Below are positions 4,948 through 42,346 of a stretch of 44,537 bases of DNA, one piece after another. The notes below the pieces were generated by a model. It saw only the letters and a list, made by a program, of their open reading frames with translations. It did not search any database and was not told the DNA's origin. Position 1 is the stretch's first letter. Each line of letters begins with the position of its first letter. Origin of the DNA: a phage; the NCBI GenBank assembly GCA_034027115.1, contig GCA_034027115.1_4703.1; one strand, written 5' to 3'. The translations under genes and the position numbers were made by a program.

Positions 4948-4955
4948 ATTAACTG

Positions 4956-4984
4956 TTGACAGCCACGGCATACAAGGTTACATT
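4956..4984 (+). promoter_or_regulatory. Candidate host sigma70-type promoter (TTGACA, 17-nt spacer, TACATT) upstream of ocr.
   Basis: Perfect -35, 17-nt spacer, -10 with T1, A2 and T6 conserved. Confidence 0.45.
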
Positions 4985-5126
4985 AAGCATCAAGACGGCG
5001 ACGTCTTTAAACATCCCGCTCTTTAACAATTTGGATGGTAACTTCTTAGTCTGGATAGGTTAAACCTAGGAGATTCTCTTGAGTCTCCTATAATGTAACC
5101 TAACTAACTAAATGAGGATTAATAAC

Positions 5127-21358: not shown

Positions 21359-21373
21359 TTGACACTATAGAAC
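21353..21373 (+). promoter_or_regulatory. Phage promoter variant (ATTTAGTTGACACTATAGAAC).
   Basis: Overlaps the phosphoesterase stop codon; core CACTATAGAA intact. Confidence 0.55.
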
Positions 21374-21962: not shown

Positions 21963-21963
21963 T

Positions 21964-22137
21964 ATGGAAGGTAAACTGTATAGAGGGTGCTTCGGTAACT
22001 TATATAAAGTAAGCTCTCGCGGTTTTGTATTGACCTCTGATGATGAAGGTGCAATGTGGCACCTAAGTGCATATGGTTCTAACTTAGCACACTTTAAAGA
22101 GGCAATAGTCAAAGGTGTGATGAAGGAGGTGAAATGA
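21964..22137 (+). CDS. Hypothetical small protein (57 aa).
   Basis: ATG two nt after the upstream stop; ends overlapping the ligase start. Confidence 0.35.
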   Translation: MEGKLYRGCFGNLYKVSSRGFVLTSDDEGAMWHLSAYGSNLAHFKEAIVKGVMKEVK

Positions 22138-23081
22138 ACATCTTCCAATTCCTAGGTCTTCCAGAAGACCACCGCAATCATCCATTCATGCTGGTGAAGC
22201 ATCGCGGTGAAGTTCCTGAGAAGAAACTTACTTTTCCATGTTATGCACAGGTGAAACGAGATGGAATATTCAGTGCTGTTGTGGTGCGCAATGATGGTGC
22301 TGTTGCCATCTTTGGTCGTACTGGTAAGAAGCTCGCAAATGTTGAATCCTTGGAAAAGACGTTTAGTGTATTTCCTGTCGGGTTGTATCTTGGTGAGTTG
22401 CAATCTATGGCTGTTGATGTTTATCTTGAAGCTCTGTCAGGAGTGGTAAACCCTAATCGTACAGAGCCACTTGACTTCATAGGCCAGCAGATTAAAGACA
22501 ACCTGTATATCGACTTCTTCGATATGTTAACTATTAAGGCATTCCATGATGGATTCACTGATGTTTCTTATCTCAAACGTTACGATGCTTTACATCGTCG
22601 CATCGGCGCCCATCTTAGCGGGTACAACGCTATCCTTCCTATTACTCCTTGCCATAATGAGCGAGAAGTTGAAGCGTTTGCGCAAGAGCAGATAGACGCA
22701 GGCCGAGAAGGTGCGGTATTTAAACTTGACGTGGAGTACGAAAGTGGGCACAAGGGCTATCGTCAAACGAAGATCGTTCGTATGGTATCTTATGACCTCA
22801 CCTGCATTGGGTGGGAGGAAGGAAAAGGTAAGTATAAAGGTAAAGTAGCTAATTTAATCTTTAAATGGAAAGGTGGTAAGTCCGTTAAGGCTATGCTGGG
22901 GCGTGGCTGGTCACATGAGGATGCAGCACAGATGTATCACGATATTAAACACGGTGGCGAACTAAACGTCATTGGGAAAATCTTCGCTGTTAAGGCGTTA
23001 CAGGAATCTAGTAAGGGAGTCCTGAGACTTCCCAAGGTTTCTGAACTTAGGTTTGATAAGGAAGTCCCTGATGTCTTCTAA
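22134..23081 (+). CDS. ATP-dependent DNA ligase.
   Basis: Active-site KxDG motif (QVKRDGIFSAV); GAAGGAGG SD. Confidence 0.85.
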   Translation: MNIFQFLGLPEDHRNHPFMLVKHRGEVPEKKLTFPCYAQVKRDGIFSAVVVRNDGAVAIFGRTGKKLANVESLEKTFSVFPVGLYLGELQSMAVDVYLEALSGVVNPNRTEPLDFIGQQIKDNLYIDFFDMLTIKAFHDGFTDVSYLKRYDALHRRIGAHLSGYNAILPITPCHNEREVEAFAQEQIDAGREGAVFKLDVEYESGHKGYRQTKIVRMVSYDLTCIGWEEGKGKYKGKVANLIFKWKGGKSVKAMLGRGWSHEDAAQMYHDIKHGGELNVIGKIFAVKALQESSKGVLRLPKVSELRFDKEVPDVF

Positions 23082-23556
23082 TCCAAATTATCGAAAACCA
23101 CCTCGTACACCGCCAAGACCACTTGCCTACTGTCCTTTTACTGGAAAGCTTTTCCGTAAGTTCAAAGATGGCTGGAGAGAAACAGGACTTAGCAGAAAGA
23201 GTGATGGATATTTACAGTGTAAAGTCGATGGTAAGACTGTAAGTGTTCATGTTTTAGCAATGAATATGATGGGTTATGACACTACCGGCTTTACAGTAGA
23301 TCACATAAATCATATACGCTGGGATAATAGGTTTATTAATCTACGTCTATTATCTCATAAAGATAATTGTTTAAATAGAGAGGCGATACATATAAGTAAG
23401 CTGCCGAGTGGTAACTACAGAGCGCGATGTGGAAATGTTCATCTTGGCGTATTTGAGGATAAGTTACTTGCTCGTGGTGCTATCCTATGGTATCGCCATA
23501 GGGGATTTAATAATGTTAAATTCAATGAAGGCAACGCGTGCCGTAGAAGTAGCTGA
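23071..23556 (+). CDS. HNH homing endonuclease.
   Basis: DHINHIRWDNRFINLRLLSHKDN HNH signature; overlaps the ligase 3' end. Confidence 0.8.
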   Translation: MSSNPNYRKPPRTPPRPLAYCPFTGKLFRKFKDGWRETGLSRKSDGYLQCKVDGKTVSVHVLAMNMMGYDTTGFTVDHINHIRWDNRFINLRLLSHKDNCLNREAIHISKLPSGNYRARCGNVHLGVFEDKLLARGAILWYRHRGFNNVKFNEGNACRRSS

Positions 23557-23707
23557 AGCTATCTTTGAAACTTTATCCTGCGGCATGGAAGTGCCATATA
23601 CTTTACTTGCTGATGCAGAAGAACTTGGTCTTTCTGTAGAAGCTATCCAAGAGAAGGTTGACGAATTATATGGTACAGACGAAGAAGAAACCGACGATTT
23701 CATTTGA
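23513..23707 (+). CDS. Small acidic protein (64 aa), hypothetical.
   Basis: In-frame ATG at 23513; C-terminus ...GTDEEETDDFI. Confidence 0.4.
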   Translation: MLNSMKATRAVEVAEAIFETLSCGMEVPYTLLADAEELGLSVEAIQEKVDELYGTDEEETDDFI

Positions 23708-23836
23708 AGGAATGGAGATGCTTGAGATGATTCTCAAGCCTTCTTCTCCTAAGGTGACTAAGACTCATGAAGAGTTAATCGTTGATGAAGTTAAGCGTTA
23801 CATCATGGATTGTGTCAGAGCACAACTGGTGATCCA

Positions 23837-24298
23837 ATGATACGTCCAGCTTCCTTCCTAGATATTCCTGAGATTATAAACCTTGGGAATAAATATGTGG
23901 AAGAGGAAGTCAAGGTTGTAGCCCACCACTCAGCCTCATGGAATGCAGAACAAAGTGCACATAACCTTTGTGCATCTCTTAGTAGAGAAGATTTATTCCT
24001 ATGGGTTGCTGTAGATGAAGGGCAGATTGTAGGGTTCCTGTGGGCTGGCTATCACGAGTTGGCCCCTTGGACACCTGTAAGAGTTGCCTCTGACATTCTC
24101 TTTTATATTATACCAGAGAGGCGAGGAACACTTCTTGGTATGCGTCTCATCAAAGCCCTAAAGCAATGGGCTAGTGATAATGAATGCTCTGAGGTTCGCC
24201 TGTCTATCGCCTCTGGTATCAATGAAGAACGTGTCGGACGTATGTATAAGCGACTTGGCTTTGAACCGTTTGGCACTGTGTATAACCTGAAGTTCTAA
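23837..24298 (+). CDS. GNAT-family N-acetyltransferase.
   Basis: IVGFLWAGY...RRGTLLGMRLIKALKQWASDNECSEVRLSI...YKRLGF resembles the acetyl-CoA-binding core of GNAT enzymes; start taken at ATG 23837. Confidence 0.7.
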   Translation: MIRPASFLDIPEIINLGNKYVEEEVKVVAHHSASWNAEQSAHNLCASLSREDLFLWVAVDEGQIVGFLWAGYHELAPWTPVRVASDILFYIIPERRGTLLGMRLIKALKQWASDNECSEVRLSIASGINEERVGRMYKRLGFEPFGTVYNLKF

Positions 24299-24307
24299 GG
24301 AGATAAC

Positions 24308-24517
24308 ATGGGTGTTGTAAAGAAAGCATTTAAGGCTATCGGTCTTGCTCAAGATGCACCACGTATTGAAGCGAAAGTGCCAGCACAGCAGCTTGAGCGT
24401 AAGCCAGAGACTGAAGCTGAAGATATTCAGATTGGTGCAGGAGATGATGATGCTACTGCATCTGCAAAAGGCAAGCGTGGCCTTGTCCGTCCGGTAGCTT
24501 CTAGCTTGAAGGTGTAA
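24308..24517 (+). CDS. Small protein upstream of the portal gene (69 aa); possible minor virion protein.
   Basis: AAGGAGA SD; by position only. Confidence 0.5.
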   Translation: MGVVKKAFKAIGLAQDAPRIEAKVPAQQLERKPETEAEDIQIGAGDDDATASAKGKRGLVRPVASSLKV

Positions 24518-24518
24518 T

Positions 24519-26069
24519 ATGAAACAGAGCACAGATTTGGAGTATGGAGGTAAGCGGTCTAAGATACCTAAGCTATGGGAGAAATTCTCCACTAAACGTA
24601 GCTCTTTCCTTGATAGGGCGAAGCATTACTCCAAATTAACCTTGCCCTATCTGATGAATGACAAAGGTGATAACGAGACTTCGCAGAATGGATGGCAAGG
24701 TGTAGGTGCTCAGGCAACCAACCATCTAGCCAACAAGCTAGCGCAAGTACTATTCCCTGCACAGCGTTCCTTCTTCCGTGTAGACTTAACTGCACAAGGT
24801 GAGAAGGTTCTTAATCAGCGTGGCCTGAAGAAGACAGAGCTAGCTACCATCTTCGCTCAAGTGGAAACACGGGCAATGAAAGAGTTAGAGCAACGTCAAT
24901 TCCGGCCTGCTGTAGTAGAAGCATTTAAGCATCTTATTGTTGCTGGCAGCTGTATGCTATACAAGCCGAGCAAAGGTGCAATCAGTGCTATCCCAATGCA
25001 TCACTACGTAGTTAACCGTGATACCAATGGCGACCTGTTAGACATTATCTTGCTACAAGAGAAAGCCTTACGTACCTTTGACCCAGCTACACGTGCTGTA
25101 GTAGAGGTTGGCCTGAAAGGTAAGAAGTGCAAAGAAGATGACAGCGTTAAGCTGTACACACATGCTAAGTATCTTGGTGATGGATTTTGGGAACTCAAGC
25201 AATCTGCTGATGATATCCCTGTGGGTAAGGTGAGTAAAATCAAATCAGAAAAGCTACCTTTCATCCCATTAACTTGGAAGCGAAGCTATGGTGAGGATTG
25301 GGGTCGCCCTCTTGCAGAGGATTACTCCGGTGATTTATTCGTTATCCAATTCTTATCTGAAGCGGTTGCCCGTGGTGCTGCGCTGATGGCAGATATCAAG
25401 TACCTGATTCGTCCGGGTGCTCAAACTGATGTTGACCACTTTGTTAACTCTGGCACTGGTGAGGTTATCACTGGTGTAGAAGAAGACATCCATATTGTAC
25501 AGTTAGGTAAGTATGCAGACCTCACACCTATTAGCGCGGTTCTAGAGGTATACACTCGCCGTATCGGTGTTGTCTTCATGATGGAGACAATGACACGCCG
25601 TGACGCCGAACGTGTTACTGCTGTAGAAATCCAGCGAGATGCGTTAGAGATTGAGCAGAACATGGGTGGTGTATACTCCCTCTTTGCTACTACTATGCAA
25701 TCGCCAGTAGCGATGTGGGGTCTGCTGGAGGCAGGGGAGTCCTTCACTAGTGACCTAGTGGACCCTGTGATTATCACAGGTATTGAAGCTTTAGGACGCA
25801 TGGCTGAGTTGGATAAACTGGCTAACTTTGCTCAGTATATGTCACTGCCATTACAATGGCCTGAGCCTGTCCTAGCTGCTGTGAAATGGCCTGACTATAT
25901 GGATTGGGTGCGTGGTCAAATCTCTGCTGAACTGCCGTTCCTTAAATCGGCTGAAGAGATAGCACAAGAACAGGAAGCACAGATGCAAGCACAGCAAGCA
26001 CAGATGCTTGAAGAAGGTGTGGCTAAGGCCGTGCCGGGTGTAATTCAACAAGAACTTAAGGAGGCGTAA
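24519..26069 (+). CDS. Portal (head-tail connector) protein, T7 gp8-like.
   Basis: Size (516 aa), position before scaffold and capsid, acidic C-terminal region. Confidence 0.9.
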   Translation: MKQSTDLEYGGKRSKIPKLWEKFSTKRSSFLDRAKHYSKLTLPYLMNDKGDNETSQNGWQGVGAQATNHLANKLAQVLFPAQRSFFRVDLTAQGEKVLNQRGLKKTELATIFAQVETRAMKELEQRQFRPAVVEAFKHLIVAGSCMLYKPSKGAISAIPMHHYVVNRDTNGDLLDIILLQEKALRTFDPATRAVVEVGLKGKKCKEDDSVKLYTHAKYLGDGFWELKQSADDIPVGKVSKIKSEKLPFIPLTWKRSYGEDWGRPLAEDYSGDLFVIQFLSEAVARGAALMADIKYLIRPGAQTDVDHFVNSGTGEVITGVEEDIHIVQLGKYADLTPISAVLEVYTRRIGVVFMMETMTRRDAERVTAVEIQRDALEIEQNMGGVYSLFATTMQSPVAMWGLLEAGESFTSDLVDPVIITGIEALGRMAELDKLANFAQYMSLPLQWPEPVLAAVKWPDYMDWVRGQISAELPFLKSAEEIAQEQEAQMQAQQAQMLEEGVAKAVPGVIQQELKEA

Positions 26070-26989
26070 TGTCTTTCTCATTTACTGAACCGTCAACCAC
26101 TCACCCTACTGCTGAAGAGGGTCCGGTAGAAACCAAGGAGGTAACAACTGATGCTGCTACTACTGATGCTACTGCTGACGCTGGCACTGCTGTACAAGAT
26201 GACAATGCTGGTGCACAACCTACTGAAGACACCGGAGGAGGGGCTTCTGGACAGCCTTCAGAAAAAGGAGACAATGGCGGAGAGAATGGTGAATCTAAGC
26301 CAGATGATACCGCGACCGACACTGAGGAAGTGCAATACTTCTTCGGAGAACATGAAGTAACAATAGACATCCCACAGGATGTAACTGACAGCCTTAAAGA
26401 GAAAGGCATTGATGCCAAGCAGGTTGCCAAGGAACTCTATTCCAAAGGTGGCAAGTTTGAACTGTCAGATGCAACCAAGCAGAAATTGTATGATGCTTTT
26501 GGCAAGTTTGCGGTAGATGCTTACCTGTCAGGTCTTAAGGCTCAAAATGAAGCCTTCTTCCTGAAAGAAGCCAGCGCAGCTAAAGAGTTGGAAGCAGCTA
26601 ACACCCAACGCTTCTCTGATGTTTCTAAGGAAATTGGTGGCGAAGAAGGTTGGTCCCGTCTTGAGGAGTGGGCGCTTGAAACGCTATCCGATGACGAACT
26701 CACGGCATTCAATGCTGTGATGGAGTCTGGCAACCAGTACCTCCAGCAGTACGCTGTGCGTGAACTGGAGAGCCGCCGTAAGGCTGCACAGGGTGATGAT
26801 AGGCCATCCCTGATTGAGCCATCAGCACCTGCTAAGGCTAATGAAGAGAATGGCCCACTGACGCGAGATCAGTACGTTCAAGCAATCGCAACTCTTAGCC
26901 AGAAGTACGGCAATGACCGTAAAGCTATGGCAGAAGCTCAGGCTAAACTGGACGCCCGTCGCCGTGCTGGCATGGCTCGCGGTATCTAA
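26069..26989 (+). CDS. Capsid assembly scaffolding protein.
   Basis: Start overlaps the portal stop (TAATG) with AAGGAGG SD; acidic low-complexity N-terminus; position. Confidence 0.85.
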   Translation: MSFSFTEPSTTHPTAEEGPVETKEVTTDAATTDATADAGTAVQDDNAGAQPTEDTGGGASGQPSEKGDNGGENGESKPDDTATDTEEVQYFFGEHEVTIDIPQDVTDSLKEKGIDAKQVAKELYSKGGKFELSDATKQKLYDAFGKFAVDAYLSGLKAQNEAFFLKEASAAKELEAANTQRFSDVSKEIGGEEGWSRLEEWALETLSDDELTAFNAVMESGNQYLQQYAVRELESRRKAAQGDDRPSLIEPSAPAKANEENGPLTRDQYVQAIATLSQKYGNDRKAMAEAQAKLDARRRAGMARGI

Positions 26990-26995
26990 TTCAGT

Positions 26996-27018
26996 ATTTA
27001 CTGGACACTATAGAAGGG
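26996..27018 (+). promoter_or_regulatory. Phage promoter, consensus copy, upstream of the major capsid gene.
   Basis: ATTTACTGGACACTATAGAAGGG. Confidence 0.7.
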
Positions 27019-27068
27019 AGAAAAGTTCTCCCTAGTTATCAATTTGATTTATAAGGAGATTATAAGAC

Positions 27069-28277
27069 ATGTCTACACCGAATACTCTGACTAACGTTGC
27101 TGTATCTGCATCCGGTGAGGTTGACAGCCTTCTCATTGAGAAGTTTAATGGTAAGGTCAATGAGCAGTACCTGAAAGGTGAGAACATTCTGTCCTACTTT
27201 GATGTACAAACTGTTACTGGCACTAACACAGTGAGCAACAAATATTTGGGCGAAACTGAGTTGCAGGTGCTAGCACCGGGTCAGTCTCCTAATGCCACCC
27301 CTACTCAGGCGGATAAAAACCAGTTGGTAATTGATACCACTGTCATTGCTCGTAACACTGTGGCTCACATCCACGATGTACAAGGTGACATCGATAGCCT
27401 GAAACCAAAATTGGCTATGAACCAAGCCAAGCAACTGAAACGTCTGGAAGACCAGATGGCAATTCAGCAGATGCTGTTAGGCGGTATTACTAACACCAAG
27501 GCCAACCGTGACAAGCCGCGTGTTAAAGGGCATGGCTTCTCTATCAACGTTAACGTAATTGAGAGGGAAGCACTGGCTAACCCTCAGTATGTTATGGCTG
27601 CGGTAGAGTATGCTCTGGAGCAACAGCTTGAGCAGGAAGTGGACATCTCTGATGTAGCTATCATGATGCCGTGGAAGTTCTTCAATGCTCTGCGTGATGC
27701 AGACCGAATTGTAGATAAGACTTACACTATCAGCCAGTCTGGTGCAACCGTTAATGGCTTCGTTCTCTCTTCTTATAACTGCCCTGTGATTCCGTCTAAC
27801 CGATTCCCTACCTTCGCTCCGAATCAGGCTCACCACCTGTTGTCTAATGAAGATAACGGCTATCGTTATGACCCTATCGCAGCGATGAATGGTGCAATTG
27901 CTGTTCTGTTCACTGCCGACGCACTGCTGGTGGGTCGTACCATTGAAGTGACTGGTGACATCTTCTATGAGAAGAAAGAGAAGACTTATTACATTGACAC
28001 CTTCATGGCTGAGGGTGCAATCCCTGACCGTTGGGAAGCAGTGTCTGTAGTTACCACTAAACGTAATACAACTACTGGTACTGCTGAAGCTTCTGGTGGG
28101 GATCACGCAACCGTACTGGCTCGTGCACAGCGTAAGGCTGTATATGTCAAAACTGTAGGTGCTGCGGCTGCATCCTCTGCTGCCCCAGCAGGTGTCCAAG
28201 CGGAAGACCTTGTAGCGGCGGTACGTGCTGTAATGGCAAATGACATCAAGCCGACTGCAATGAAACCTGCTGAGTAA
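27069..28277 (+). CDS. Major capsid protein.
   Basis: 402 aa; strong SD TAAGGAGA; highly biased codon usage; position between scaffold and tail tube genes; terminator downstream. Confidence 0.92.
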   Translation: MSTPNTLTNVAVSASGEVDSLLIEKFNGKVNEQYLKGENILSYFDVQTVTGTNTVSNKYLGETELQVLAPGQSPNATPTQADKNQLVIDTTVIARNTVAHIHDVQGDIDSLKPKLAMNQAKQLKRLEDQMAIQQMLLGGITNTKANRDKPRVKGHGFSINVNVIEREALANPQYVMAAVEYALEQQLEQEVDISDVAIMMPWKFFNALRDADRIVDKTYTISQSGATVNGFVLSSYNCPVIPSNRFPTFAPNQAHHLLSNEDNGYRYDPIAAMNGAIAVLFTADALLVGRTIEVTGDIFYEKKEKTYYIDTFMAEGAIPDRWEAVSVVTTKRNTTTGTAEASGGDHATVLARAQRKAVYVKTVGAAAASSAAPAGVQAEDLVAAVRAVMANDIKPTAMKPAE

Positions 28278-28285
28278 TACCTATG

Positions 28286-28318
28286 CCCTATCTACCTTGC
28301 GTAGGTAGGGTTCTTTTT
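28286..28318 (+). terminator. Putative rho-independent terminator after the capsid gene.
   Basis: CCCTATCTACC-ttgcgta-GGTAGGG followed by TTCTTTTT. Confidence 0.55.
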
Positions 28319-28331
28319 GTTAGGAGGATTC

Positions 28332-29069
28332 ATGCCTGTTATTAAACAACAAAGTTACACTGGCTATACTGTCTCAGATGTAGCCTTTCAAGTGATTGAT
28401 AGTAAGCTGGAGGCTGTTAACCTTTGTATGCGAGCCATTGGTCGTGAGGGTGTGGATTCTCTCGACTCAGGCGACCTTGATGCTGAAGATGCTAGCAAAA
28501 TGATTGATATCGTCTCCCAACGTTTCCAATACAACAAAGGCGGTGGCTGGTGGTTCAATCGTGAACCTAACTGGCAGCTTGCACCAGACACGAACGGTGA
28601 GATTAACTTGCCTAATAACTGCCTAGCTGTATTGCAGTGCTACGCATTGGGTGAGAAGAAAGTGCCTATGACTATGCGTGCAGGTAAGCTCTACTCTACT
28701 TGGAGTCACACCTTTGATATGCGTAAGCATGTTAATGCTAATGGTATGATTCGTCTTACCTTACTCACCTTACTACCCTACGAGCATTTACCTACAAGTG
28801 TAATGCAGGCTATTGCCTATCAAGCTGCTGTAGAGTTTATTGTGTCTAAGGATGCAGATCAGACTAAGCTAGCCACTGCGCAGCAGATAGCCACTCAGCT
28901 TCTTATGGATGTACAATCTGAGCAAATGTCACAGAAGCGATTAAACATGCTGGTACATAACCCCACTCAGCGTCAGTTTGGTATCATGGCTGGTGGCTCT
29001 CAGAATGTACCTGCTTACTCTCATTCACCTTATGAGAGTTGGGCGCTCCGTCCGTGGGAGGATCGTTAA
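28332..29069 (+). CDS. Tail tubular protein A (T7 gp11-like).
   Basis: AGGAGG SD before ATG 28332; conserved GGGWWFN motif (T7 gp11 has GWTFN); position. Confidence 0.88.
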   Translation: MPVIKQQSYTGYTVSDVAFQVIDSKLEAVNLCMRAIGREGVDSLDSGDLDAEDASKMIDIVSQRFQYNKGGGWWFNREPNWQLAPDTNGEINLPNNCLAVLQCYALGEKKVPMTMRAGKLYSTWSHTFDMRKHVNANGMIRLTLLTLLPYEHLPTSVMQAIAYQAAVEFIVSKDADQTKLATAQQIATQLLMDVQSEQMSQKRLNMLVHNPTQRQFGIMAGGSQNVPAYSHSPYESWALRPWEDR

Positions 29070-32196: not shown

Positions 32197-35144
32197 TGGC
32201 AATTGAGCGACAAGCAGTACAAGGTCTGCCACAAGTGCAGGCCACTTCTCCTAATGTCATGACCTTTGCACCTCAGCAAGTTGGAGGTGTGGAGGCTGGC
32301 GTAGCTTCTACCTCCGGTAGTCGATTTATCGAAGACCTTATTCGAGCAGCCAGTAGTGTAGCTGATGTTACCACGGGTATCCTTAATCAGAAGATTGAGG
32401 AGGATAAGGTTGTTCAAATGGAACAGGCATATAATGGATTAATGCCCTCTGAGGATGCAACTCGTGGTGGCGCTCGTGCTAACATGCTTGTCAAAGCTCA
32501 ACTGCTAGCTAATGATGAAGCAGCACGAATGAAAGACATGGCTACTCGTTTCCAAGGAACGGATGACGAGTGGACACAACTTATGGTTGACTCTCGTAAT
32601 GAGATGCAGAATAAGCTGTTCCAGCAATACCCTGAGTTGCAAGGTGACAAAGATACTATGCGTATGGTCACTAATGTCTTCCAAGAACAGCAGCCTCAGA
32701 TTTGGGCTACACGAACCCAGCATAAACTTGACCGTGAACAAGCAGACCGTGAGGATACCTTTGACGGGCGAGTGGCTTCTACTTGGGATTCTAATATTGA
32801 CCCTGAAGCCTCTGGCTATGCTTTACAGGAACGAATCCGCGAAGGTCTTACTCAAGGATTACTACCTGAACAGATGCACAAGAAGTTAGTCCAGCGAGCA
32901 ATTTCACTTGCACAAGGCGGTGATGTTAGCATGGCTGAAGCCCTGAAGTATGTGAAGGACGATAAGGGTGTTTCTGTTTATGCTAAGAATCCACAGCTTA
33001 TCACAGCCATCACTAGTGGTAATGCAGTTTGGGCTAGGAATAATGTAGCTGATGTAACTCGTATGTCTTTCGAAGTTAAAGAATCATACCTTGCAGGTGA
33101 TTTAACTGATGAAGAATTGTTGGAACGAGCACAGCACATTAATAATCTGACAGGTAACTCTGTCTTCTCTAACCCAGAACTAGAGGCACTGATGCGCCAA
33201 CGAGCTAAGCAGAATGCAGAGCTAGGTGCAATGCAGGATATGCGCCGTGAGCTTTACTCCGACCGCCTGACTGGCTTCCAAGGTAAGACTGATAAAGAGA
33301 AGAAGGCTTACATTGATGTTATCAAACAAGATAGCCAACTTTATGCAGACCAGCAAATCAAACAACGTGGCTTGGACCCTTACAGTCAAGAGGCTGAAGC
33401 TATTCGTGGTGCAGTGGAAGTGCAGCGCCTACAATTCATGAACTCCAAAGGCTTAGTGGATGATACCTTTGAGTCTCGTATCAAAGCCATGGAATCTATG
33501 CTATCTCCTGAGCACTTTGCCAAGGGCGAACCACAAGAGTTGATGACTATTCGCCAGTTGTGGGAACAGTTGCCAGAAGAGAGCCGAGGTGTCTTTGGTG
33601 ACACGGTGAATGGCTACATGGATAACTACAACACTGCACTACAAATGGGAGAGACACCTTTGCAGGCTGCAAGGTTTGCGCGTGAAGCACAGCAGAAATT
33701 CTCTCGTACTGAGAAGGAAACCAAGAAGTTCAACTCAGCTATTGGAGATGCACTGGATGAGGTATCTGGTGCTGGCTGGTTCGATGGTAAAACCGAAGTG
33801 TCAGACTTAGGTAAAGCTATTGCAGAAGAGGAGTTACGAGCTAAGGCTAATATGCTGTGGTCTAGTGGTATGCGTAACATGGATTCCATCAAGAAGGCTT
33901 TAATTACTTGGGGCAATAAACGCTACACTCAATCAGAGGATGCAAAGACTTCCGGTGGCTATTTCATTAAAGGTGATTACACTTCTGCATCTGATATGCT
34001 TATGTCAGTTGGGAAAGGCGTAAATCCTACTGATGTACCTCTGGCGCTTGGTAGGTATGTAGAAACACAGATGCCAGAATTGAAGAAGGAGCTTCAAGAG
34101 TGGGAAACTAAAGATGATATATACATTGATTACAATGAACAGAAAGGTACTTTCGTGATTCGTGCTGGTGCAGCAGGTCGCCCTCTTTCTGGAGTAATCC
34201 CTGTAACCTCTTTAGATACCACTTCACTACTAGATTCTGCCTATCAGAAGAAAGTAGAGGAACGAGATAAAGGCGAGTATGTTCACCCTTATCGTACAGA
34301 TATTGGTGCACAAGAGCCTATGCCAGCTAAACCAACTGCCAAAGATATTGGTAAATTTGGACTAGCTAACTTCCTCATGTCTTCTGCTTTTGCTTCTGGT
34401 GAGAATCTGCCTTCTAACTTCGAGATTAACTATCGAGGTAATATGCAACAATTCTATGACAAGCTAGCTATGGATGAGAATAAAGATAAAGTTGGCTTTA
34501 ATAAGGCAACTGGAACCTTTACTCCATATAAAGATGCTCACGGTGAGTCTATCGGTTACGGTCATTTCTTAACGGAAGAAGAGAAGCGAAACGGGTATAT
34601 TAAGATTGGTGATGAACTAGTTCCCTATCGAGGGTCTATGTCTCAGCTTACAGAGAGCAAGGCTCGCGCTCTTATGGAGCAAGATGCCAAGAAGCATGTG
34701 CCTCCTACTCGTGACTGGAAGATTCCGTTTGACCAGATGCATCCTGCACAGCAACGTGGCTTGATGGATTTAACCTACAATTTAGGTAAAGGTGGAATCC
34801 AGAACTCACCGCGTGCTCTTGCTGCATTCAAAGCTGGTAAGCTTACGGAAGGCTTTATCGAAATGCTGGGCACTGCATCAAGTGAAGGTAAGCGTATCCC
34901 TGGTCTACTGAAGCGACGCGCTGAGGCATACAATATGGCATCTGCTGGTGGTGTGCCTAAGATTACCGAAGTGGAGACTCGTGAAGATGGCTCCATGTGG
35001 GTTAGGTTTGGTGGACCTATGCCAGCAGGTTCTGTCTCGGCATGGACTCATAAACGTATTGGCGCGGATGGTTGGTATCAGGTTTATGAGGCTGCACCTA
35101 CCAAGTTAGCTAAAGGTTCTAAGGTAGGTAAATTTAAGTTGTAG
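32196..35144 (+). CDS. Internal virion (ejection) protein, 982 aa, with an embedded lysozyme-like (T4-lysozyme/GH24-type) domain in the C-terminal third.
   Basis: KDAHGESIGYGHFLTEEE...MDLTYNLGKGG...GLLKRRAEAYNMA resembles the catalytic N-terminus and C-terminal lobe of phage lysozymes; position equivalent to T7 gp15. Confidence 0.85.
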   Translation: MAIERQAVQGLPQVQATSPNVMTFAPQQVGGVEAGVASTSGSRFIEDLIRAASSVADVTTGILNQKIEEDKVVQMEQAYNGLMPSEDATRGGARANMLVKAQLLANDEAARMKDMATRFQGTDDEWTQLMVDSRNEMQNKLFQQYPELQGDKDTMRMVTNVFQEQQPQIWATRTQHKLDREQADREDTFDGRVASTWDSNIDPEASGYALQERIREGLTQGLLPEQMHKKLVQRAISLAQGGDVSMAEALKYVKDDKGVSVYAKNPQLITAITSGNAVWARNNVADVTRMSFEVKESYLAGDLTDEELLERAQHINNLTGNSVFSNPELEALMRQRAKQNAELGAMQDMRRELYSDRLTGFQGKTDKEKKAYIDVIKQDSQLYADQQIKQRGLDPYSQEAEAIRGAVEVQRLQFMNSKGLVDDTFESRIKAMESMLSPEHFAKGEPQELMTIRQLWEQLPEESRGVFGDTVNGYMDNYNTALQMGETPLQAARFAREAQQKFSRTEKETKKFNSAIGDALDEVSGAGWFDGKTEVSDLGKAIAEEELRAKANMLWSSGMRNMDSIKKALITWGNKRYTQSEDAKTSGGYFIKGDYTSASDMLMSVGKGVNPTDVPLALGRYVETQMPELKKELQEWETKDDIYIDYNEQKGTFVIRAGAAGRPLSGVIPVTSLDTTSLLDSAYQKKVEERDKGEYVHPYRTDIGAQEPMPAKPTAKDIGKFGLANFLMSSAFASGENLPSNFEINYRGNMQQFYDKLAMDENKDKVGFNKATGTFTPYKDAHGESIGYGHFLTEEEKRNGYIKIGDELVPYRGSMSQLTESKARALMEQDAKKHVPPTRDWKIPFDQMHPAQQRGLMDLTYNLGKGGIQNSPRALAAFKAGKLTEGFIEMLGTASSEGKRIPGLLKRRAEAYNMASAGGVPKITEVETREDGSMWVRFGGPMPAGSVSAWTHKRIGADGWYQVYEAAPTKLAKGSKVGKFKL

Positions 35145-35161
35145 TATCTAACTCAAGGCTT

Positions 35162-35177
35162 GTCTCACATGTGAGAC
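35162..35177. repeat. Copy 6 of palindrome GTCTCACATGTGAGAC (extended stem, U-rich tail).
   Basis: Exact read: ggcttGTCTCACATGTGAGACaggtctttatg. Confidence 0.9.
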
Positions 35178-35208
35178 AGGTCTTTATGATAGGCACTATG
35201 GAGGAATT

Positions 35209-38200
35209 ATGGAACAAGACATTAAGACTAATTGGGCTGGATATGTCCAGTCTACTCCTGAGCCGTTTTCTATTGAGGCGGCTCCGGTATCGGCTCCTAC
35301 GATACGCCAGCGTAATGAGTTACAAGAGCAAGTTCTTGAAGCTAAAGCTGATGCTGATATCTTAGGTGCTGTAGGTGCTGCCTTCCAGAATGAGTGGTTG
35401 GCATTCGGAGGCAAGCGGTGGTATGACCGTGCCACTGCTGATTTCACACCTCAACCAGACTTCGAGATACAACCTGAGCAACGTGAAGCACTACGTTTCA
35501 AATATGGTACAGATATGATGCAGACAATCACTGAGGGTGTTCGTTCTGAGGGTGAATTGAACTTCCGTATTCAGAATGCTGATGAAGACCTTGAGCGCAA
35601 TAAGCGCATTGCTCAGGCTGGCTGGGTTGGCTCTGTGGCGACGATTGGCGCTGCTGTGCTTGACCCAGTGGGTTGGGTTGCCTCTATCCCAACTGGCGGT
35701 GCAGCCAAAGTCGGCCTCGTAGGTCGTGCCGTGCGTGGCGCTATCGCCGCTGGCGTGAGCAATGCCGCTATTGAATCCGTATTGGTCCAAGGTGACATGA
35801 CTCGTGATTTAGATGACATTATGGTAGCACTAGGTTCTGGTATGGCTATGGGTGGCGTTATTGGCGCTGTAGCGCGTGGTAGGGCCACTAAGCTCAGTGA
35901 GCAAGGGGATGACAGGGCTGCGAGCATTGTGCGCAGTGCAGACGCAGGGGACCGCTATGTGCGTGCTGTTGCTGATGACAGTATCGGTGCGATGCGTGTT
36001 AAGGGCGAAGAGGTACTCACTGAGGGCGCATTTGATATATCTAGTAAAGGCGAAGACTTGCTGAAAACATTGCAGAGGGAGGGGAACTCTATTGATATGA
36101 CCCCTCGCCGCTGGGCCGGAACCATGTCTGCCCTTGGGACTGTCGTGCACTCCTCTCATGATGCTAGTGTTCGTGGCCTCGGTGCTCGCCTGTTTGAGTC
36201 TCCGCAAGGTTTAGGTATGCAAAAGGCATCTGCCAGTCTTATGCAGAATACCAACTTGAATCGCCTGAAGTCTGCTGATATGAACCGTTTCAATGACGGG
36301 TTTGACTTATGGCTCAAAGAAAATAATATCAATCCAGTTGCAGGCCATACTAACTCTCACTATGTGCAGCAATATAATGAGAAGGTATGGGAAGCTGTAC
36401 GCATCGGTATGGATGAGTCTACGCCTAAGTCTATCCGTATGGCAGCAGAGGGGCAGCAAGCTATGTACCGAGAAGCCTTAGCTTTAAGGAAGCGCTCCGG
36501 TGAAGCTGGCTTTGAAAACATTAAAGCAGATAGTAAGTATATGCCTGATATCTTTGACACTATGAAAGCTCGCCGTCAATTTGATAGGATAGGAAAGGAT
36601 ATAGATAAAGAAGATATCATTGAGTTATTCTCTCGTGCTTATCAGAACGGCGCTCGTAAAATTCCAAAAGAAGTAGCGGATGAAATTGCACGAGCACAAG
36701 TAAACCGTGTTGTGGATGCCACTCTGACAGGACGTATGAGTTTCGAAAAGGCTATGTCTGGTCAGACTAAAGCCGAGTATGAAGCAATAATGCGCAAGGC
36801 AGGCTTCAGTGATGAAGAAATTGAAAAGATGGTAGAAGCTCTGGATAACAAAGAAACCAGAGATAACATCTCTAACCGAGCTAAAATGAGTTTAGGACTA
36901 GATGTTACTCAAGAATACAATGGTATTCGTATGCGTGACTTCATGAATACCAACGTGGAAGAGCTAACAGATAACTATATGAAGGAGGCAGCAGGTGGCG
37001 CTGCATTGGCCCGTCAAGGATTCTCTACCTATCAGGCTGCACTTAATGCAATTGACCTTGTAGAGCGAAATGCACGAAACGCGGCTAAGGATAGCAAGGC
37101 TAGCTTAGCACTAGATGAAGAGATTCGTCAAATGCGAGAAGGGCTTCGCTTGATTATGGGTAAATCTATCGATGTAGACCCACAGGCTTTGTCTACTAAA
37201 ATACTGCGACGTGGTCGTGACATTACAGGTGTACTTCGCTTAGGTCAGATGGGCTTCGCACAGCTAGGCGAACTTGCTAACTTCATGGGTGAGTTTGGTA
37301 TTGCTGCAACCACTATAGCTTTAGGTAAGCAATTCCGCTTTACATCTAAGGCTTTGCGGAGCGGTGATGGCTTCTTTCGAGATAAGAATTTGGCAGAAGT
37401 AGAGAGAATGGTAGGTTACATTGGTGAGGATAACTGGCTAACAACCAAGGGTGCACGTCCAGATGAGTTTGGTGATGTAACCACAGTAAAAGGAATGATG
37501 GCTCACTTTGACCAATCCATGAACTCAATACGTCGTGCTCAGACCAACCTATCACTTTTCCGCATGGCACAGGGTTCTCTGGAGCGAATGACCAATAGGC
37601 AAATAGCTTTGTCTTTCATTGACCACCTTGAAGGCAAGAAGATTATTCCTCAGAAGAAACTGGAGGAACTTGGTCTTACTCAGGAGTTCATGACTAATCT
37701 ACAGAAGCACTATGATGCTAACTCTAAAGGTTCTGGCTTGCTTGGCTTTGATACAATGCCTTATGCCATGGGTGAAACTTTAGCTAATGCTATTCGTCGT
37801 AAGTCAGGTCTAATTATCCAACGTAACTTCATTGGTGATGAAGGTATCTGGATGAACAAAGCACTAGGTAAGACATTTGCACAGCTTAAGTCATTCTCTC
37901 TTGTATCTGGTGAGAAGCAATTTGGTCGAGGGATTCGCCACGATAAAATTGGTCTTGCTAAGAAGACAGCTTACGGGTTTGCTTTGGGTTCAATAGTGTA
38001 TGCGGCAAAAGCCTATGTGAACTCTATTGGGCGAGAAGACCAAGATGAATATTTGGAAGAGAAGTTATCTCCTAAAGGGTTGGCCTTTGGTGCAATGGGT
38101 ATGATGAGTACAACTGCTGTATTTAGTCTAGGTGGAGATTTCTTAGGTGGCCTAGGTGTTCTACCTTCTGAGTTAGTACAATCCCGTTATGAGGCTGGCT

Positions 38201-38406
38201 TTCAGACTAAGGGTTTGATAGACCAAATACCACTAGTAGGTGTTGGTCAAGATGCATATCGTTTAGCAGATTCTATAACTAAATATGCAGAAGGTGATAC
38301 AGAAGGTGTAGATGTGGCACGTAGGGCTTTACGCTTAGTGCCTCTAACTAATGTAATAGGAATCCAGAACGCATTGCGTTATGGCTTAGATGAACTGGAG
38401 GATTGA
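35209..38406 (+). CDS. Large internal virion/ejection protein (1065 aa), T7 gp16-equivalent.
   Basis: GGAGGA SD; size; position between internal virion protein and tail adaptor. Confidence 0.85.
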   Translation: MEQDIKTNWAGYVQSTPEPFSIEAAPVSAPTIRQRNELQEQVLEAKADADILGAVGAAFQNEWLAFGGKRWYDRATADFTPQPDFEIQPEQREALRFKYGTDMMQTITEGVRSEGELNFRIQNADEDLERNKRIAQAGWVGSVATIGAAVLDPVGWVASIPTGGAAKVGLVGRAVRGAIAAGVSNAAIESVLVQGDMTRDLDDIMVALGSGMAMGGVIGAVARGRATKLSEQGDDRAASIVRSADAGDRYVRAVADDSIGAMRVKGEEVLTEGAFDISSKGEDLLKTLQREGNSIDMTPRRWAGTMSALGTVVHSSHDASVRGLGARLFESPQGLGMQKASASLMQNTNLNRLKSADMNRFNDGFDLWLKENNINPVAGHTNSHYVQQYNEKVWEAVRIGMDESTPKSIRMAAEGQQAMYREALALRKRSGEAGFENIKADSKYMPDIFDTMKARRQFDRIGKDIDKEDIIELFSRAYQNGARKIPKEVADEIARAQVNRVVDATLTGRMSFEKAMSGQTKAEYEAIMRKAGFSDEEIEKMVEALDNKETRDNISNRAKMSLGLDVTQEYNGIRMRDFMNTNVEELTDNYMKEAAGGAALARQGFSTYQAALNAIDLVERNARNAAKDSKASLALDEEIRQMREGLRLIMGKSIDVDPQALSTKILRRGRDITGVLRLGQMGFAQLGELANFMGEFGIAATTIALGKQFRFTSKALRSGDGFFRDKNLAEVERMVGYIGEDNWLTTKGARPDEFGDVTTVKGMMAHFDQSMNSIRRAQTNLSLFRMAQGSLERMTNRQIALSFIDHLEGKKIIPQKKLEELGLTQEFMTNLQKHYDANSKGSGLLGFDTMPYAMGETLANAIRRKSGLIIQRNFIGDEGIWMNKALGKTFAQLKSFSLVSGEKQFGRGIRHDKIGLAKKTAYGFALGSIVYAAKAYVNSIGREDQDEYLEEKLSPKGLAFGAMGMMSTTAVFSLGGDFLGGLGVLPSELVQSRYEAGFQTKGLIDQIPLVGVGQDAYRLADSITKYAEGDTEGVDVARRALRLVPLTNVIGIQNALRYGLDELED

Positions 38407-39368
38407 TGAGTTATACTTTCACAGAACATATAGCCAACGGTACGCAAGTAACCTATCCCTTTAGATTTGCTGGCAGGGATAAAGGCTATCTTCGTGCCTC
38501 AGATGTGATAGTGGAATCTCTTCAAGGTAACACTTGGATTGAGGTTACATCTGGCTGGCAACTAACTGGCACGCACCAGATTACTTTTGATGTAGCACCA
38601 GTTGCAGGTTTGAAGTTCCGTATTCGAAGGGAAGTACAAAAGGAGTATCCATACGCTGAGTTTGACCGTGGTGTTACCTTGGATATGAAGTCTTTAAATG
38701 GTTCTTTCATTCATATACTGGAGATTACACAGGAGTTACTTGACGGGTTTTATCCAGAAGGATACTTCATTAAACAGAATGTAAGCTGGGGCGGCAATAA
38801 GATTACTGATTTGGCTGATGGCACAAATCCTGGAGATGCAGTAAATAAAGGGCAGCTTGATGCCATCGACAAGAAGCATACAGATTGGAACGCCAAACAG
38901 GACATTGAGATTGCTGGCCTTAAGGCTGGTATGACTTCTGGTATTGCGCACAGAACTGTTCCTTGGTACACGATAGCCAAAGTTGGTGAGATTTCCGTAA
39001 AACCACCTTATGAATTTCAAGATGCACTAGTTTTCCTTAATGGGGTGTTGCAGCACCAAATTGTAGGCGCATACTCTATAAGCAACAACACTATCACTTT
39101 CGCAGAGCCGCTTGTGGCGGGTACAGAGGTGTATGTGCTGATTGGTAGTCGTGTGGCTACATCTGAACCTAATATTCAGTTAGAGTTGAACTTTGACTTA
39201 GTAGAAGGCCAACAAGTAGTACAGATTGGCTCTGCATTTAAGTACATTGAGGTCTACCTTGATGGATTATTACAACCTAAACTTGCTTATCAGGTAGACG
39301 GTGACATTGTTACTTTCTCAGAAAGAGTACCAGAATGCCGGATGACTGCTAAGATTATCACAGCATAA
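38406..39368 (+). CDS. Tail fibre N-terminal-domain homologue acting as tailspike adaptor.
   Basis: GGAGG SD; ATG overlaps upstream stop (TGATG); about 320 aa, the size of a gp17 N-terminal domain without a receptor-binding part, as in SP6-like phages where separate tailspikes dock on an adaptor. Confidence 0.8.
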   Translation: MSYTFTEHIANGTQVTYPFRFAGRDKGYLRASDVIVESLQGNTWIEVTSGWQLTGTHQITFDVAPVAGLKFRIRREVQKEYPYAEFDRGVTLDMKSLNGSFIHILEITQELLDGFYPEGYFIKQNVSWGGNKITDLADGTNPGDAVNKGQLDAIDKKHTDWNAKQDIEIAGLKAGMTSGIAHRTVPWYTIAKVGEISVKPPYEFQDALVFLNGVLQHQIVGAYSISNNTITFAEPLVAGTEVYVLIGSRVATSEPNIQLELNFDLVEGQQVVQIGSAFKYIEVYLDGLLQPKLAYQVDGDIVTFSERVPECRMTAKIITA

Positions 39369-39377
39369 GGAGGTGGG

Positions 39378-39572
39378 ATGATTAACTCCGAACTGGTAGA
39401 TAGTGGTGTGAAGCTTGCGCCACCTGCACTCGTATCAGGTGGGTACTTCCTCGGTATCAGTTGGGATAATTGGGTGTTAATAGCAACATTCATTTATACC
39501 GTGTTGCAAATTGGGGACTGGTTTTATAATAAGTTCAAGATTTGGAGGGAGAAGCGTGAGCGTACACAATAA
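39378..39572 (+). CDS. Holin (T7 gp17.5-like, class II).
   Basis: AAGGAGG SD; WVLIATFIYTVLQIGDWF resembles the T7 holin core (WFYVAAIAYTVVQIG); basic C-terminus. Confidence 0.75.
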   Translation: MINSELVDSGVKLAPPALVSGGYFLGISWDNWVLIATFIYTVLQIGDWFYNKFKIWREKRERTQ

Positions 39573-39855
39573 ACATGCAGCTACAGAGGACGAGGTTGGC
39601 ATTCTGCATGGTGCTATTACCAAAATCTTCAATAAGAAAGCACAGGCAATACTGGACACTATAGAAGAAGACCCTGATGCAGCATTACATTTAGTGTCTG
39701 GTAAGGATATTGGTGCGATGTGTAAGTGGGTTCTTGATAACGGCATTACCGCCACACCTGCTGCACAGCAGGAAGAGTCCAAGTTATCTAAGCGCCTCAA
39801 GGCTATCCGAGAGGCATCCAGTGGTAAGATTATTCAGTTTACAAAAGAGGAGTGA
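39556..39855 (+). CDS. Putative terminase small subunit (positional call; GTG start after GGAGGG).
   Basis: About 99-aa ORF between holin and large terminase as in T7 gene 18; no motif I can verify. A promoter-like AATACTGGACACTATAGAAGAAG lies inside at 39646..39668. Confidence 0.45.
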   Translation: MSVHNKHAATEDEVGILHGAITKIFNKKAQAILDTIEEDPDAALHLVSGKDIGAMCKWVLDNGITATPAAQQEESKLSKRLKAIREASSGKIIQFTKEE

Positions 39856-39856
39856 T

Positions 39857-40300
39857 ATGCATAGATGGTGTGAATCTCAAGGTTATACCATCTTACCTTC
39901 TGGTGTCATCCTTTCAAAGGGTGGCACCCCTCTCAAACCATTCAAGGCGGGTAGGGGTTATTTAGCAGTTAAAATTAAAAATAAAGAAGGTAAATGGCGT
40001 AATGTCTATGTTCATCAATTAGTGGCTTATAAGTATTTACCTAAAACTAATAATGAAGTAAACCACAAAGACGGCGATAAGCACAACAATGATGTTAGCA
40101 ACTTGGAGTGGGTAACAAGAAGCGAGAATAACTATTTAAAATGCAATGGAAATGATAGGAGTGCCTTAAATAGCTATTTAGCAAGATTAAAAGATTGCTT
40201 CTTGCAAGGTAAGGGTGTAGCAGAAACCGCTAGACTTACTGGTAAAAGTGAACCAAGAGTTTCTTCTCTCTTTAAGGAGTGGCGAAATGGCAAAGGCTAG
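39857..40300 (+). CDS. HNH endonuclease inserted between the terminase subunit genes.
   Basis: AGGAG SD; NHKDGDKHNNDVSNLEWVTRSEN HNH signature; overlaps the large terminase start. Confidence 0.8.
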   Translation: MHRWCESQGYTILPSGVILSKGGTPLKPFKAGRGYLAVKIKNKEGKWRNVYVHQLVAYKYLPKTNNEVNHKDGDKHNNDVSNLEWVTRSENNYLKCNGNDRSALNSYLARLKDCFLQGKGVAETARLTGKSEPRVSSLFKEWRNGKG

Positions 40301-42205: not shown

Positions 42206-42346
42206 AAGGCCCAGATAATAAGAGAAAATAATAGGTAATATATAGTTTAACCTAGGTTATATAGGTATGCCTTAGTATGGGTGTACTCCTGTACACCCTA
42301 TTCCTTACTACCTTACTATATTTACATAATAGGAGAGAGAGAGACA

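Follow-up and report, generated by a model that had tools for sequence, protein, structure and literature searches.

Two predicted free-standing HNH homing endonuclease genes at the ligase/gp25 and terminase junctions of a Vectrevirus genome

Identification of two HNH_3 endonuclease genes

The stretch of DNA analysed here (44,537 nt; referred to as the window) represents the complete genome of a Vectrevirus, i.e. a coliphage belonging to the K1-5/K1E/SP6-like podophages. Two ORFs on the plus strand, designated here HNH1 (23071 to 23556, from ATG to TGA; 161 aa) and HNH2 (39857 to 40300, from ATG to TAG; 147 aa), were shown to match the Pfam family PF13392 (HNH_3) with scores of 35.8 bits (E = 6e-9) and 43.4 bits (E = 3e-11), respectively, both of which exceed the gathering cut-off of 24.8 bits. 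The corresponding PHROG matches were to the HNH families phrog_99 (4e-27) for HNH1 and phrog_59 (1e-29) for HNH2. Alignment to I-HmuI (PDB 1U3E) revealed that the catalytic residues are retained in both proteins, namely D77-H78, N90 and N99 of HNH1 and N69-H70, N82 and N91 of HNH2 (residue numbers were counted off the printed I-HmuI alignments). These results bear out the observation of an earlier note on this DNA that both ORFs carry clear HNH motifs. A BLASTP comparison of the two HNH proteins (E = 2.8) ruled out paralogy.

HNH1 and HNH2 are located in gene junctions (ligase/gp25 and TerS/TerL, respectively) and not in an intron or intein, and both correspond to inserts of ~430 bases with clean junctions that are missing in close relatives. 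The earlier note had proposed a comparison with HNH-free relatives; such relatives exist and set the exact insertion junctions for both ORFs, with empty HNH1/HNH2 sites being observed in K1-5, K1E, EEc4, EEc2, ULINTec7, LL11 and PSK8. The same note had stated that both ORFs overlap the ends of flanking essential genes, which was found to apply in part: the last 11 nt of the ligase gene, including its stop codon, overlap the start of HNH1, and the 3' end of HNH2 overlaps the start of TerL by 14 nt, but there is no overlap between HNH2 and TerS. Furthermore, the term 'essential' does not fit the ligase, as the ligase of T7-type phages (T7 gene 1.3) is dispensable on ligase-proficient hosts.

The ligase/gp25 junction

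The upstream flank of HNH1 is formed by an ATP-dependent DNA ligase gene (22134..23081, plus strand), as identified by the Pfam domains DNA_ligase_A_M and DNA_ligase_OB_2 and by the ligase annotation in relatives. At its 3' end, HNH1 overlaps by 32 nt a small conserved ORF (23525..23707, plus strand, with its ATG at 23525; 60 aa), shown by alignment with relatives to be a homologue of K1-5 gp25. In K1-5 and EEc4, which exhibit the empty site, this gp25 homologue directly follows the ligase stop codon, and relative to K1-5 the HNH1 insert spans about 23082-23517. When aligned with K1-5 and EEc4, which are HNH-free, and with VEc3, 6948 and K1E, relatives of the orf41 type, the cassette together with its linked flanking substitutions was placed at approximately 23046..23570. 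These substitutions affect the terminal ~25 nt of the ligase gene on one side, and on the other about 6 synonymous ones fall within the initial ~45 nt of the ORF that follows. This synonymous tract is weaker than the recoded tract linked to HNH2 (see below).

A database search detected HNH1 in 4 of ~94 related records, and in phages 6949, EEc2 and ZK1 the gene is annotated as 'hypothetical protein' only. Klebsiella phage ZK1, a member of another genus, encodes a 65%-identical homologue with retained motifs at the same ligase/gp25 junction, which is suggestive of horizontal spread. Conversely, the five HNH1 carriers are near-identical across the whole 3-kb region (93-100% identity per 100-nt bin, mostly 97-100%), and for this reason the distribution of HNH1 could represent one clade with a single old insertion instead of ongoing homing.

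HNH1 and its ZK1 homologue have in common a conserved C-terminal segment, 'YRARCGNVHLGVFED..LARGA', the 'YRARCGNVHLGVFED' portion of which may be AP2-like. A Pfam search of the C-terminal half with E values up to 10 returned no match, leaving the AP2-like reading without Pfam support.

The TerS/TerL junction

HNH2 (39857..40300, plus strand), an I-HmuI-like HNH_3 endonuclease ORF, is inserted between the two terminase genes. The terminase small subunit gene (TerS; 39556..39855, plus strand) was identified by its match to Pfam DNA_Packaging_2 (E = 3e-16) and by annotation in relatives, from which its GTG start was adopted, while the terminase large subunit gene (TerL; 40287..42185, plus strand), the presumed target gene of HNH2, was identified by Terminase-T7_RNaseH-like (E = 1.5e-35) and the corresponding annotation. 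The ATG of HNH2 is positioned 1 nt past the TerS stop codon. At the empty site of K1-5 and K1E the TerS stop overlaps the TerL start (GATTGATGG), at which location the window harbours a 432-nt insert. HNH2 is annotated as 'HNH homing endonuclease' in VEc3, KMB47, EC120 and AAPEc6.

Two Shine-Dalgarno sequences are associated with this arrangement. GAGGAG (39847..39852, plus strand) is located 4 nt upstream of the HNH2 ATG and, judging from the alignment with K1-5, would serve TerL in HNH-free relatives and HNH2 in the window. AAGGAG (40274..40279, plus strand) forms part of the cassette's 3' end, where it precedes the TerL ATG by 7 nt, and presumably stands in for the TerL signal taken by the HNH2 gene.

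The C-terminus of HNH2 weakly matched HTH_23 (E = 0.045) and also resembled region 4 of sigma factors (E = 0.5), indicative of a probable helix-turn-helix. A single-sequence AlphaFold2 model of HNH2 was unusable (mean pLDDT of 41.8).

Distribution of HNH2 and its linked recoded tract

HNH2 DNA was found in 18 records, while its flanks were matched by about 112 related records. Alignments and tract searches defined a minimal co-inherited unit at 39840..40367. In this unit, the 432-nt insert is accompanied by four to five linked substitutions in the 3'-terminal part of TerS and by a recoded tract at the 5' end of TerL (40292-40367). Compared with the empty allele, this recoded tract exhibits 26-29 differences in 83 nt, including five amino acid changes (A13K, M17N, Q19K, Q23D and P26K). 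Among the five carriers compared (the window, VEc3, EC120, Mt1B1_P10 and AAPEc6) the tract is 98.8-100% identical, whereas it shares 65-69% identity with every empty allele compared; the empty alleles are mutually 93-100% identical, even where their backbones are only about 80-90% identical. When the 83-nt tract was used as a query, the database returned the 18 records that contain the HNH2 gene and no others, and polymorphisms beyond 40400 or before 39837 were shown to be unlinked to the presence of HNH2.

The distribution of HNH2 is incongruent with that of the genomic backbone, and this incongruence is indicative of horizontal spread. The HNH2 bodies of the window and Mt1B1_P10 are 100% identical, while the TerL bodies of the same pair are 92% identical; an unchanged cassette on TerL backbones that diverge by 8% therefore points to recent transfer. 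Conversely, HNH-free K1-5 shares 99.8% identity in the TerL body with the carriers EC120 and AAPEc6. A free-standing homing endonuclease whose target site is immune and co-converted would be expected to leave such a pattern, namely a perfectly linked recoded tract and a cassette found on divergent backbones; the TerL/TerS differences in carriers would then confer immunity. Alternatively, the recoded TerL tract could have been carried along from a foreign donor by passive co-conversion, without having been selected as an immunity determinant. The cleavage sites of T4 free-standing endonucleases can be located hundreds of bp from the gene (PMC2988022), and the target of HNH2 thus need not be situated within the recoded tract.

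Two further HNH2-related sequences were taken as signs of a life cycle. In mutPK1A2, the homologue that occupies the same site (45% identity) has a frameshift following residue 110 and carries T in place of N91, and the AAPEc6 copy is intact, with nine synonymous and five non-synonymous codon changes.

Expression of the cassettes

A search of the window for SP6-type promoters identified eight matches against zero expected, none of which was found inside the HNH1 or HNH2 cassette. The nearest such promoter upstream of HNH1 is located at 21353..21373 (plus strand), while that at 26996..27016 (plus strand) heads the late transcription unit that includes HNH2. A hairpin search identified a terminator-like hairpin after TerL at 42279-42298. 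Sigma-70-like and terminator-like matches that might serve as the cassettes' own signals occurred at chance level only. In this respect, both cassettes resemble the T4 seg/mob cassettes, which are promoter-less (PMC2988022).

Interpretation and alternative explanations

Based on these sequence comparisons, we consider it highly probable that both ORFs are free-standing HNH homing endonuclease genes carried on promoter-less cassettes of ~430 bp between conserved Vectrevirus genes. This was also the main reading of the earlier note, and it is upheld by the exact junctions relative to HNH-free relatives and, for HNH2, additionally by the linked recoded flank and the incongruence between cassette and backbone. 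According to the proposed mechanism, an HNH-carrying and an HNH-free phage would co-infect the same cell, upon which the enzyme would nick or cut the empty allele, at the ligase/gp25 junction in the case of HNH1 and at the TerS 3' end or within the first ~80 nt of TerL in the case of HNH2. The phage recombination machinery would then repair the break using the HNH-carrying genome as a template, thereby copying the cassette and the adjacent recoded tract, the latter of which would protect the carrier's own genome from being cut. Translation of the cassettes would proceed from existing polycistronic mRNAs, with HNH2 using the former ribosome-binding site of TerL and bringing a new one for TerL, so that its insertion may be close to neutral for the phage. 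Cleavage as such, the position of the target, nicking versus double-strand cutting, and biased (super-Mendelian) inheritance are elements of this model that we infer from sequence patterns.

The possibility that both ORFs stem from old insertions and are now decaying, i.e. inactive, immobile and vertically inherited, would be in line with the confinement of HNH1 to a tight group of near-identical genomes and with the degenerate HNH2 homologue in mutPK1A2. We consider this unlikely, however, as neither ORF is truncated and the catalytic residues of both are intact, the identical HNH2 cassette on divergent TerL backbones indicates recent transfer, the diverged AAPEc6 copy is still intact with mostly synonymous change, and the ZK1 homologue of HNH1 has kept its motifs despite its divergence. 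That the nucleases mainly act as weapons against host DNA or competing phages in general, and not for their own spread, is extremely improbable. In T-even crosses, marker exclusion by free-standing endonucleases does benefit the carrier genome (PMC2988022), and host attack was the subject of speculation by the authors of a Hafnia phage study (PMC8861465); yet exclusion of a competitor at the cognate site is mechanistically indistinguishable from homing, and the window holds no sign of non-specific or host-directed cutting. The perfect linkage between HNH2 and the recoded site in the phage's own TerL instead argues for the allele of a sister phage as the target.

The position of HNH2 between TerS and TerL, with which it is co-transcribed and translationally linked, raises the alternative of a domesticated accessory packaging subunit that stimulates terminase cutting in a manner similar to HK97 gp74, in which case its location beside the terminase genes would be functional. 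HNH genes near terminase genes are recurrent in phages (PMC3592412), all 18 HNH2 carriers share the five amino acid changes in the TerL N-terminus, and small plaques of the T7-like Hafnia phage Ca contained mostly genomes in which a homing endonuclease gene immediately upstream of TerL was affected by a 397-bp deletion (PMC8861465). The Hafnia gene, however, belongs to a different lineage that has only the HNH core in common with HNH2. Moreover, ~94 of the 112 related records lack HNH2, among them those of K1-5, K1E and LL11, all of which have been isolated and form plaques, and its absence in K1-5 is accompanied by a TerL body that is nearly identical to those of two carriers. The terminase-associated HNH class is defined by a [CxxC]2 or CxxC/CxxH zinc-binding site (PMC3592412), whereas scanning of both proteins detected no CxxC or CxxH zinc-binding motif, and HNH2 is an HNH_3/I-HmuI-like protein and not a member of PF01844. 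Genes of the packaging class are located upstream of TerS beside cos (PMC3592412, Table 2) and not, as HNH2 is, between TerS and TerL. The phage is of the T7/SP6 type, with a T7-type terminase and a collapsed terminal repeat of about 235 bp, and its TerL (PF22530) possesses an RNaseH-like nuclease domain of its own. The suggestion in the earlier note that the terminase-adjacent gene may serve packaging is not supported, given its absence from most relatives, its lack of a zinc site, its different gene position and the terminase type; a requirement for HNH2 in DNA packaging is very unlikely, and the domesticated subunit is a highly improbable reading.

A related view holds that HNH2 is not purely selfish, in that the cassette has become entangled with terminase expression or function and its loss is costly, i.e. 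a form of regulatory addiction. This notion arises because the cassette takes the ribosome-binding site of TerL, supplies a new one and travels with the five TerL N-terminal changes, and it would parallel the small-plaque phenotype of the Hafnia phage Ca deletion; we regard it as quite unlikely.

Significance

HNH1 and HNH2 are uncharacterized members of a well-known kind of gene, and the finding is real but ordinary. It has little significance beyond annotation: HNH2 has already been named in several GenBank relatives, while HNH1, until now a 'hypothetical protein', can be named. In the literature library searched, queries on Vectrevirus HNH genes and K1E/K1-5 homing endonucleases retrieved no study of these particular genes. 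The free-standing endonuclease reading predicts that the target of HNH2 is located in the conserved TerS-end/TerL-start of HNH-free Vectreviruses such as K1-5, and that the 83-nt recoded tract provides resistance. Vectreviruses are therapeutic phages targeting the K1 capsule, and cassettes that bias recombination during mixed infection would have a bearing on cocktail design as well as on the interpretation of mosaicism in this genus. HNH1 and HNH2 could also yield new site-specific nickases.

Comparison with known systems

Among the closest known systems is I-HmuI (PDB 1U3E), the intron-encoded HNH nicking homing endonuclease of Bacillus phage SPO1, to which residues 11-92 of HNH2 align (E = 5e-6) across the N-terminal beta-region and the HNH motif. 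H75, N87 and N96 of I-HmuI correspond to H70, N82 and N91 of HNH2 and to H78, N90 and N99 of HNH1 in the beta-beta-alpha-metal motif. I-HmuI and HNH2 are of similar size, and the separate C-terminal DNA-binding domain of I-HmuI, a helix-turn-helix, may have a weakly supported counterpart in HNH2. I-HmuI differs from HNH2 in being intron-encoded as opposed to free-standing, and its D74 is replaced by N69 in HNH2.

With regard to genetic organization, the two cassettes resemble those of mobA and mobE of T4, free-standing HNH homing endonuclease genes that are likewise promoter-less, located between conserved genes on existing polycistronic mRNAs, sporadically distributed and associated with co-conversion of flanking markers (PMC2988022). 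In the T4 mob proteins, the HNH domain is accompanied by a distinct DNA-binding region at the C-terminus (PMC2988022), an architecture that HNH1 and HNH2 may share, although their C-terminal domains are weakly supported. The host phage family also differs, being Autographiviridae here, and while T4 cleavage sites may be hundreds of bp away (PMC2988022), the recoded tract of HNH2 directly abuts the insert.

Small HNH genes beside or inside terminase genes, overlapping the TerL start, are also represented by K1E gp40.5, the holin/TerS insert of EC120 and ORF48 of Hafnia phage Ca, and the presence of these genes, like that of HNH2, varies among close relatives. Their sites differ from that of HNH2 in the case of K1E gp40.5, located inside TerL, and of the additional EC120 copy, which is 41% identical to HNH2. 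Homology of HNH1 or HNH2 to the Hafnia phage Ca homing endonuclease was limited to the HNH core. Finally, the terminase-associated HNH proteins of the HK97 gp74/phage-gamma type share with HNH2 the location of an HNH nuclease gene beside the terminase genes, but differ in possessing a zinc site (PMC3592412), which both HNH1 and HNH2 lack, and in Pfam family, gene position and packaging strategy; unlike the members of this packaging class, HNH2 is dispensable in close relatives.

Two HNH endonuclease genes in a Vectrevirus genome

The two genes that had been read from the sequence as HNH endonucleases, HNH#1 (23071-23556, 161 aa) and HNH#2 (39857-40300, 147 aa), both matched Pfam HNH_3 above the gathering score as well as PHROG HNH-endonuclease families. 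Residues 11-92 of HNH#2 aligned with the I-HmuI structure 1U3E (E = 5e-6), placing H70, N82 and N91 opposite H75, N87 and N96 of I-HmuI. The alignment of HNH#1 with this chain was weak, with D77-H78, N90 and N99 present, and beyond the motif no relatedness was detectable between HNH#1 and HNH#2. Domain matches and the annotations of relatives supported the assigned neighbours, i.e. the genes for ligase (22134-23081) and for the small (TerS; ending at 39855) and large (TerL; ATG at 40287) terminase subunits, all on the + strand. The claim that both HNH genes overlap flanking genes held for ligase/HNH#1 (11 nt) and HNH#2/TerL (14 nt); HNH#1 additionally overlaps the next small ORF by 32 nt, and HNH#2 starts 1 nt after the TerS stop.

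All large ORFs of the window are carried on the + strand, and its DNA is 95-99% identical to that of Escherichia phages of the genus Vectrevirus (K1-5, K1E, VEc3 and LI10P3; Autographiviridae, Molineuxvirinae). BLAST comparison with K1-5 showed it to be a complete, circularly permuted genome, in which the right (3384-3979) and left (3745-5030) ends of K1-5 join at ~3745-3979; this ~235-bp overlap looks like a collapsed direct terminal repeat. Separately, no K1-5 match was found at 1487-3384, across most of the second large ORF from the window start (1358-3409, 683 aa). Judging by where gp46/gp47, the tail spike genes of K1-5, are located, a tail-spike (host-range) module has probably been exchanged here.

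HNH#2 is an insertion linked to a distinct TerL tract

Comparison with HNH-free relatives, as the earlier note had proposed, revealed exact insertion junctions for HNH#2. The stop of TerS and the start of TerL overlap in K1-5 and K1E (GATTGATGG), and exactly at this point the window and VEc3 contain 432 extra bases. Eighteen phage records contained the gene (15 of them at ≥99% identity, the others down to 91%), while its flanks were matched by ~112 records.

A 100-nt sliding comparison of the window with 12 relatives identified a single anomaly outside the insert, namely the first ~100 nt of TerL, where identity to the window was 99-100% for all HNH carriers and 71-76% for all HNH-free genomes; from 40400 onward, it returned to mostly 85-100% whatever the HNH status. 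At the nucleotide level, the linked tract extends from 40292 to 40367, with 26-29 differences in 83 nt and five amino acid changes in the TerL N-terminus. A further 4-5 linked changes were found at the TerS 3' end (39837/39840-39852), and polymorphisms at 39831 and beyond 40400 were unlinked to HNH presence. When used as sole database query, the 83-nt tract retrieved exactly the same 18 records as the HNH gene. The tract of the empty allele was 93-100% conserved, even where neighbouring phage DNA was only ~80-90% identical.

The HNH#2 bodies of the window and of Mt1B1_P10 were 100% identical, compared with 92.0% for their TerL bodies, and the upstream region of Mt1B1_P10 was closest to that of HNH-free ULINTec7 (99.2%). 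Conversely, the TerL body of K1-5, which lacks the gene, was 99.8% identical to those of carriers EC120 and AAPEc6. The cassette has thus been transferred between backbones. At the same TerS/TerL site, mutPK1A2 (1660-2090 of its stretch L008) encodes a 45%-identical homologue that is probably defunct, with a frameshift beyond residue 110 and a Thr in place of the last metal-binding Asn of the motif; the adjoining TerL tract is of the empty type. The AAPEc6 copy has diverged, at 9 synonymous and 5 non-synonymous codons, but remains intact. Both states are consistent with the cycle in which homing-endonuclease genes are gained, decay and are lost.

HNH#1 occupies a variable ligase/gp25 junction

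The equivalent comparison for HNH#1 showed an empty site in K1-5 and EEc4, where the gp25 homologue directly follows the ligase stop. HNH#1 was found in the window, 6949, EEc2 and two LI10P3 records, and a different small cassette occupies its place in VEc3 (L002, 1972-2097), 6948 and K1E, comprising a 41-aa ORF in VEc3 and 6948 and unannotated in K1E. At least three forms of this junction thus exist: empty, with orf41 and with HNH. HNH#1 was accompanied by about six synonymous substitutions within the initial 45 nt of the downstream ORF, and by the final ~25 nt of the ligase gene. As its carriers are nearly identical to one another across the whole region, the evidence of recent mobility is weaker than for HNH#2. 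Klebsiella phage ZK1, of another genus of the subfamily, encodes a 65%-identical protein at the same junction, which argues for site-specific insertion. Every public HNH#1 copy is annotated as 'hypothetical protein'.

Two other variable segments were observed nearby. Sharply distinct alleles exist for the 3'-terminal ~400 nt of the ligase gene (22700-23070), where K1-5 and EEc4 are 61-76% identical to the window versus 93-100% (per 100-nt bin) just upstream (22500-22699); this switch indicates a mosaic recombination boundary within the gene. Between the nucleotide kinase and ligase genes, a cassette with a 63-aa ORF (21946-22137) is shared with 6949, VEc3 and EEc4 and absent from K1-5, EEc2 and 6948.

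Proposed homing and the question of a packaging role

The junctions and, for HNH#2, the linked tract and the spread across backbones support the reading of these genes as free-standing homing endonucleases. The pattern matches the intronless homing defined for such enzymes of T4 (PMC2988022), which is the most likely mechanism. The enzyme would nick or cut the empty allele of a co-infecting relative, repair would copy the cassette along with markers from the insertion site as far as the cut, and sequence differences at the target would protect the carrier. Since linkage of the tract is perfect and its boundaries are sharp, the HNH#2 target is predicted to lie, in HNH-free phages, at the end of TerS or within the initial ~80 nt of TerL. 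Like I-HmuI and MobE, HNH#2 may be a nickase.

The suggestion that HNH#2 functions in packaging was not supported. Terminase-associated HNH proteins of the HK97 gp74/phage gamma class carry CxxC/CxxH zinc sites and are encoded upstream of TerS, beside the cos site (PMC3592412), whereas these motifs occur in neither HNH protein of the window, and HNH#2 separates the TerS and TerL genes of a T7-type terminase. Moreover, it is absent from most relatives, near-isogenic ones among them. The only observation in the other direction comes from T7-like Hafnia phage Ca, in which small plaques accompanied the deletion of a homing-endonuclease gene located upstream of TerL, cause and correlation being left unseparated (PMC8861465); that gene, however, belongs to another lineage. 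A packaging role for HNH#2 is therefore considered highly improbable.

Expression and relation to known systems

Eight SP6-type promoters were observed in the window, compared with zero expected by chance, and none lies inside either HNH cassette. HNH#1 belongs to a unit headed by such a promoter at 21353 and HNH#2 to the late unit headed by that at 26996, a promoter-less arrangement similar to that of several T4 seg and mob genes (PMC2988022). The GAGGAG located 4 nt before the HNH#2 start is presumably the translation site serving TerL in empty genomes, and an AAGGAG in the 3' end of the cassette, 7 nt ahead of the TerL ATG, may take this role in TerL translation.

The lysis/packaging module of Vectrevirus is an insertion hotspot, where at least three sites are used: holin/TerS (EC120), TerS/TerL (the window) and inside TerL (K1E). 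In EC120, an unannotated 143-aa HNH ORF (L009, 1367-1798), 41% identical to HNH#2, overlaps the 3' end of the holin gene, whose product is annotated as 74 aa rather than 64 aa, and a tblastn match was obtained at the equivalent place in ULINTec4. In K1E (L007, 1656-4300), the homing-endonuclease gene gp40.5 splits TerL into 40A and 40B, an annotation pattern shared by phage P433.1. HNH#2 is already named an HNH homing endonuclease in GenBank, and the presence of two HNH genes is real, its principal reading correct, but ordinary. Both genes thus represent uncharacterised members of a well-known kind: the HNH#1 family includes HNH genes of T5-like phages and Klebsiella podophages, and HNH#2, with relatives at ≤50% identity in >350 phage records, is an I-HmuI-like HNH_3 protein.
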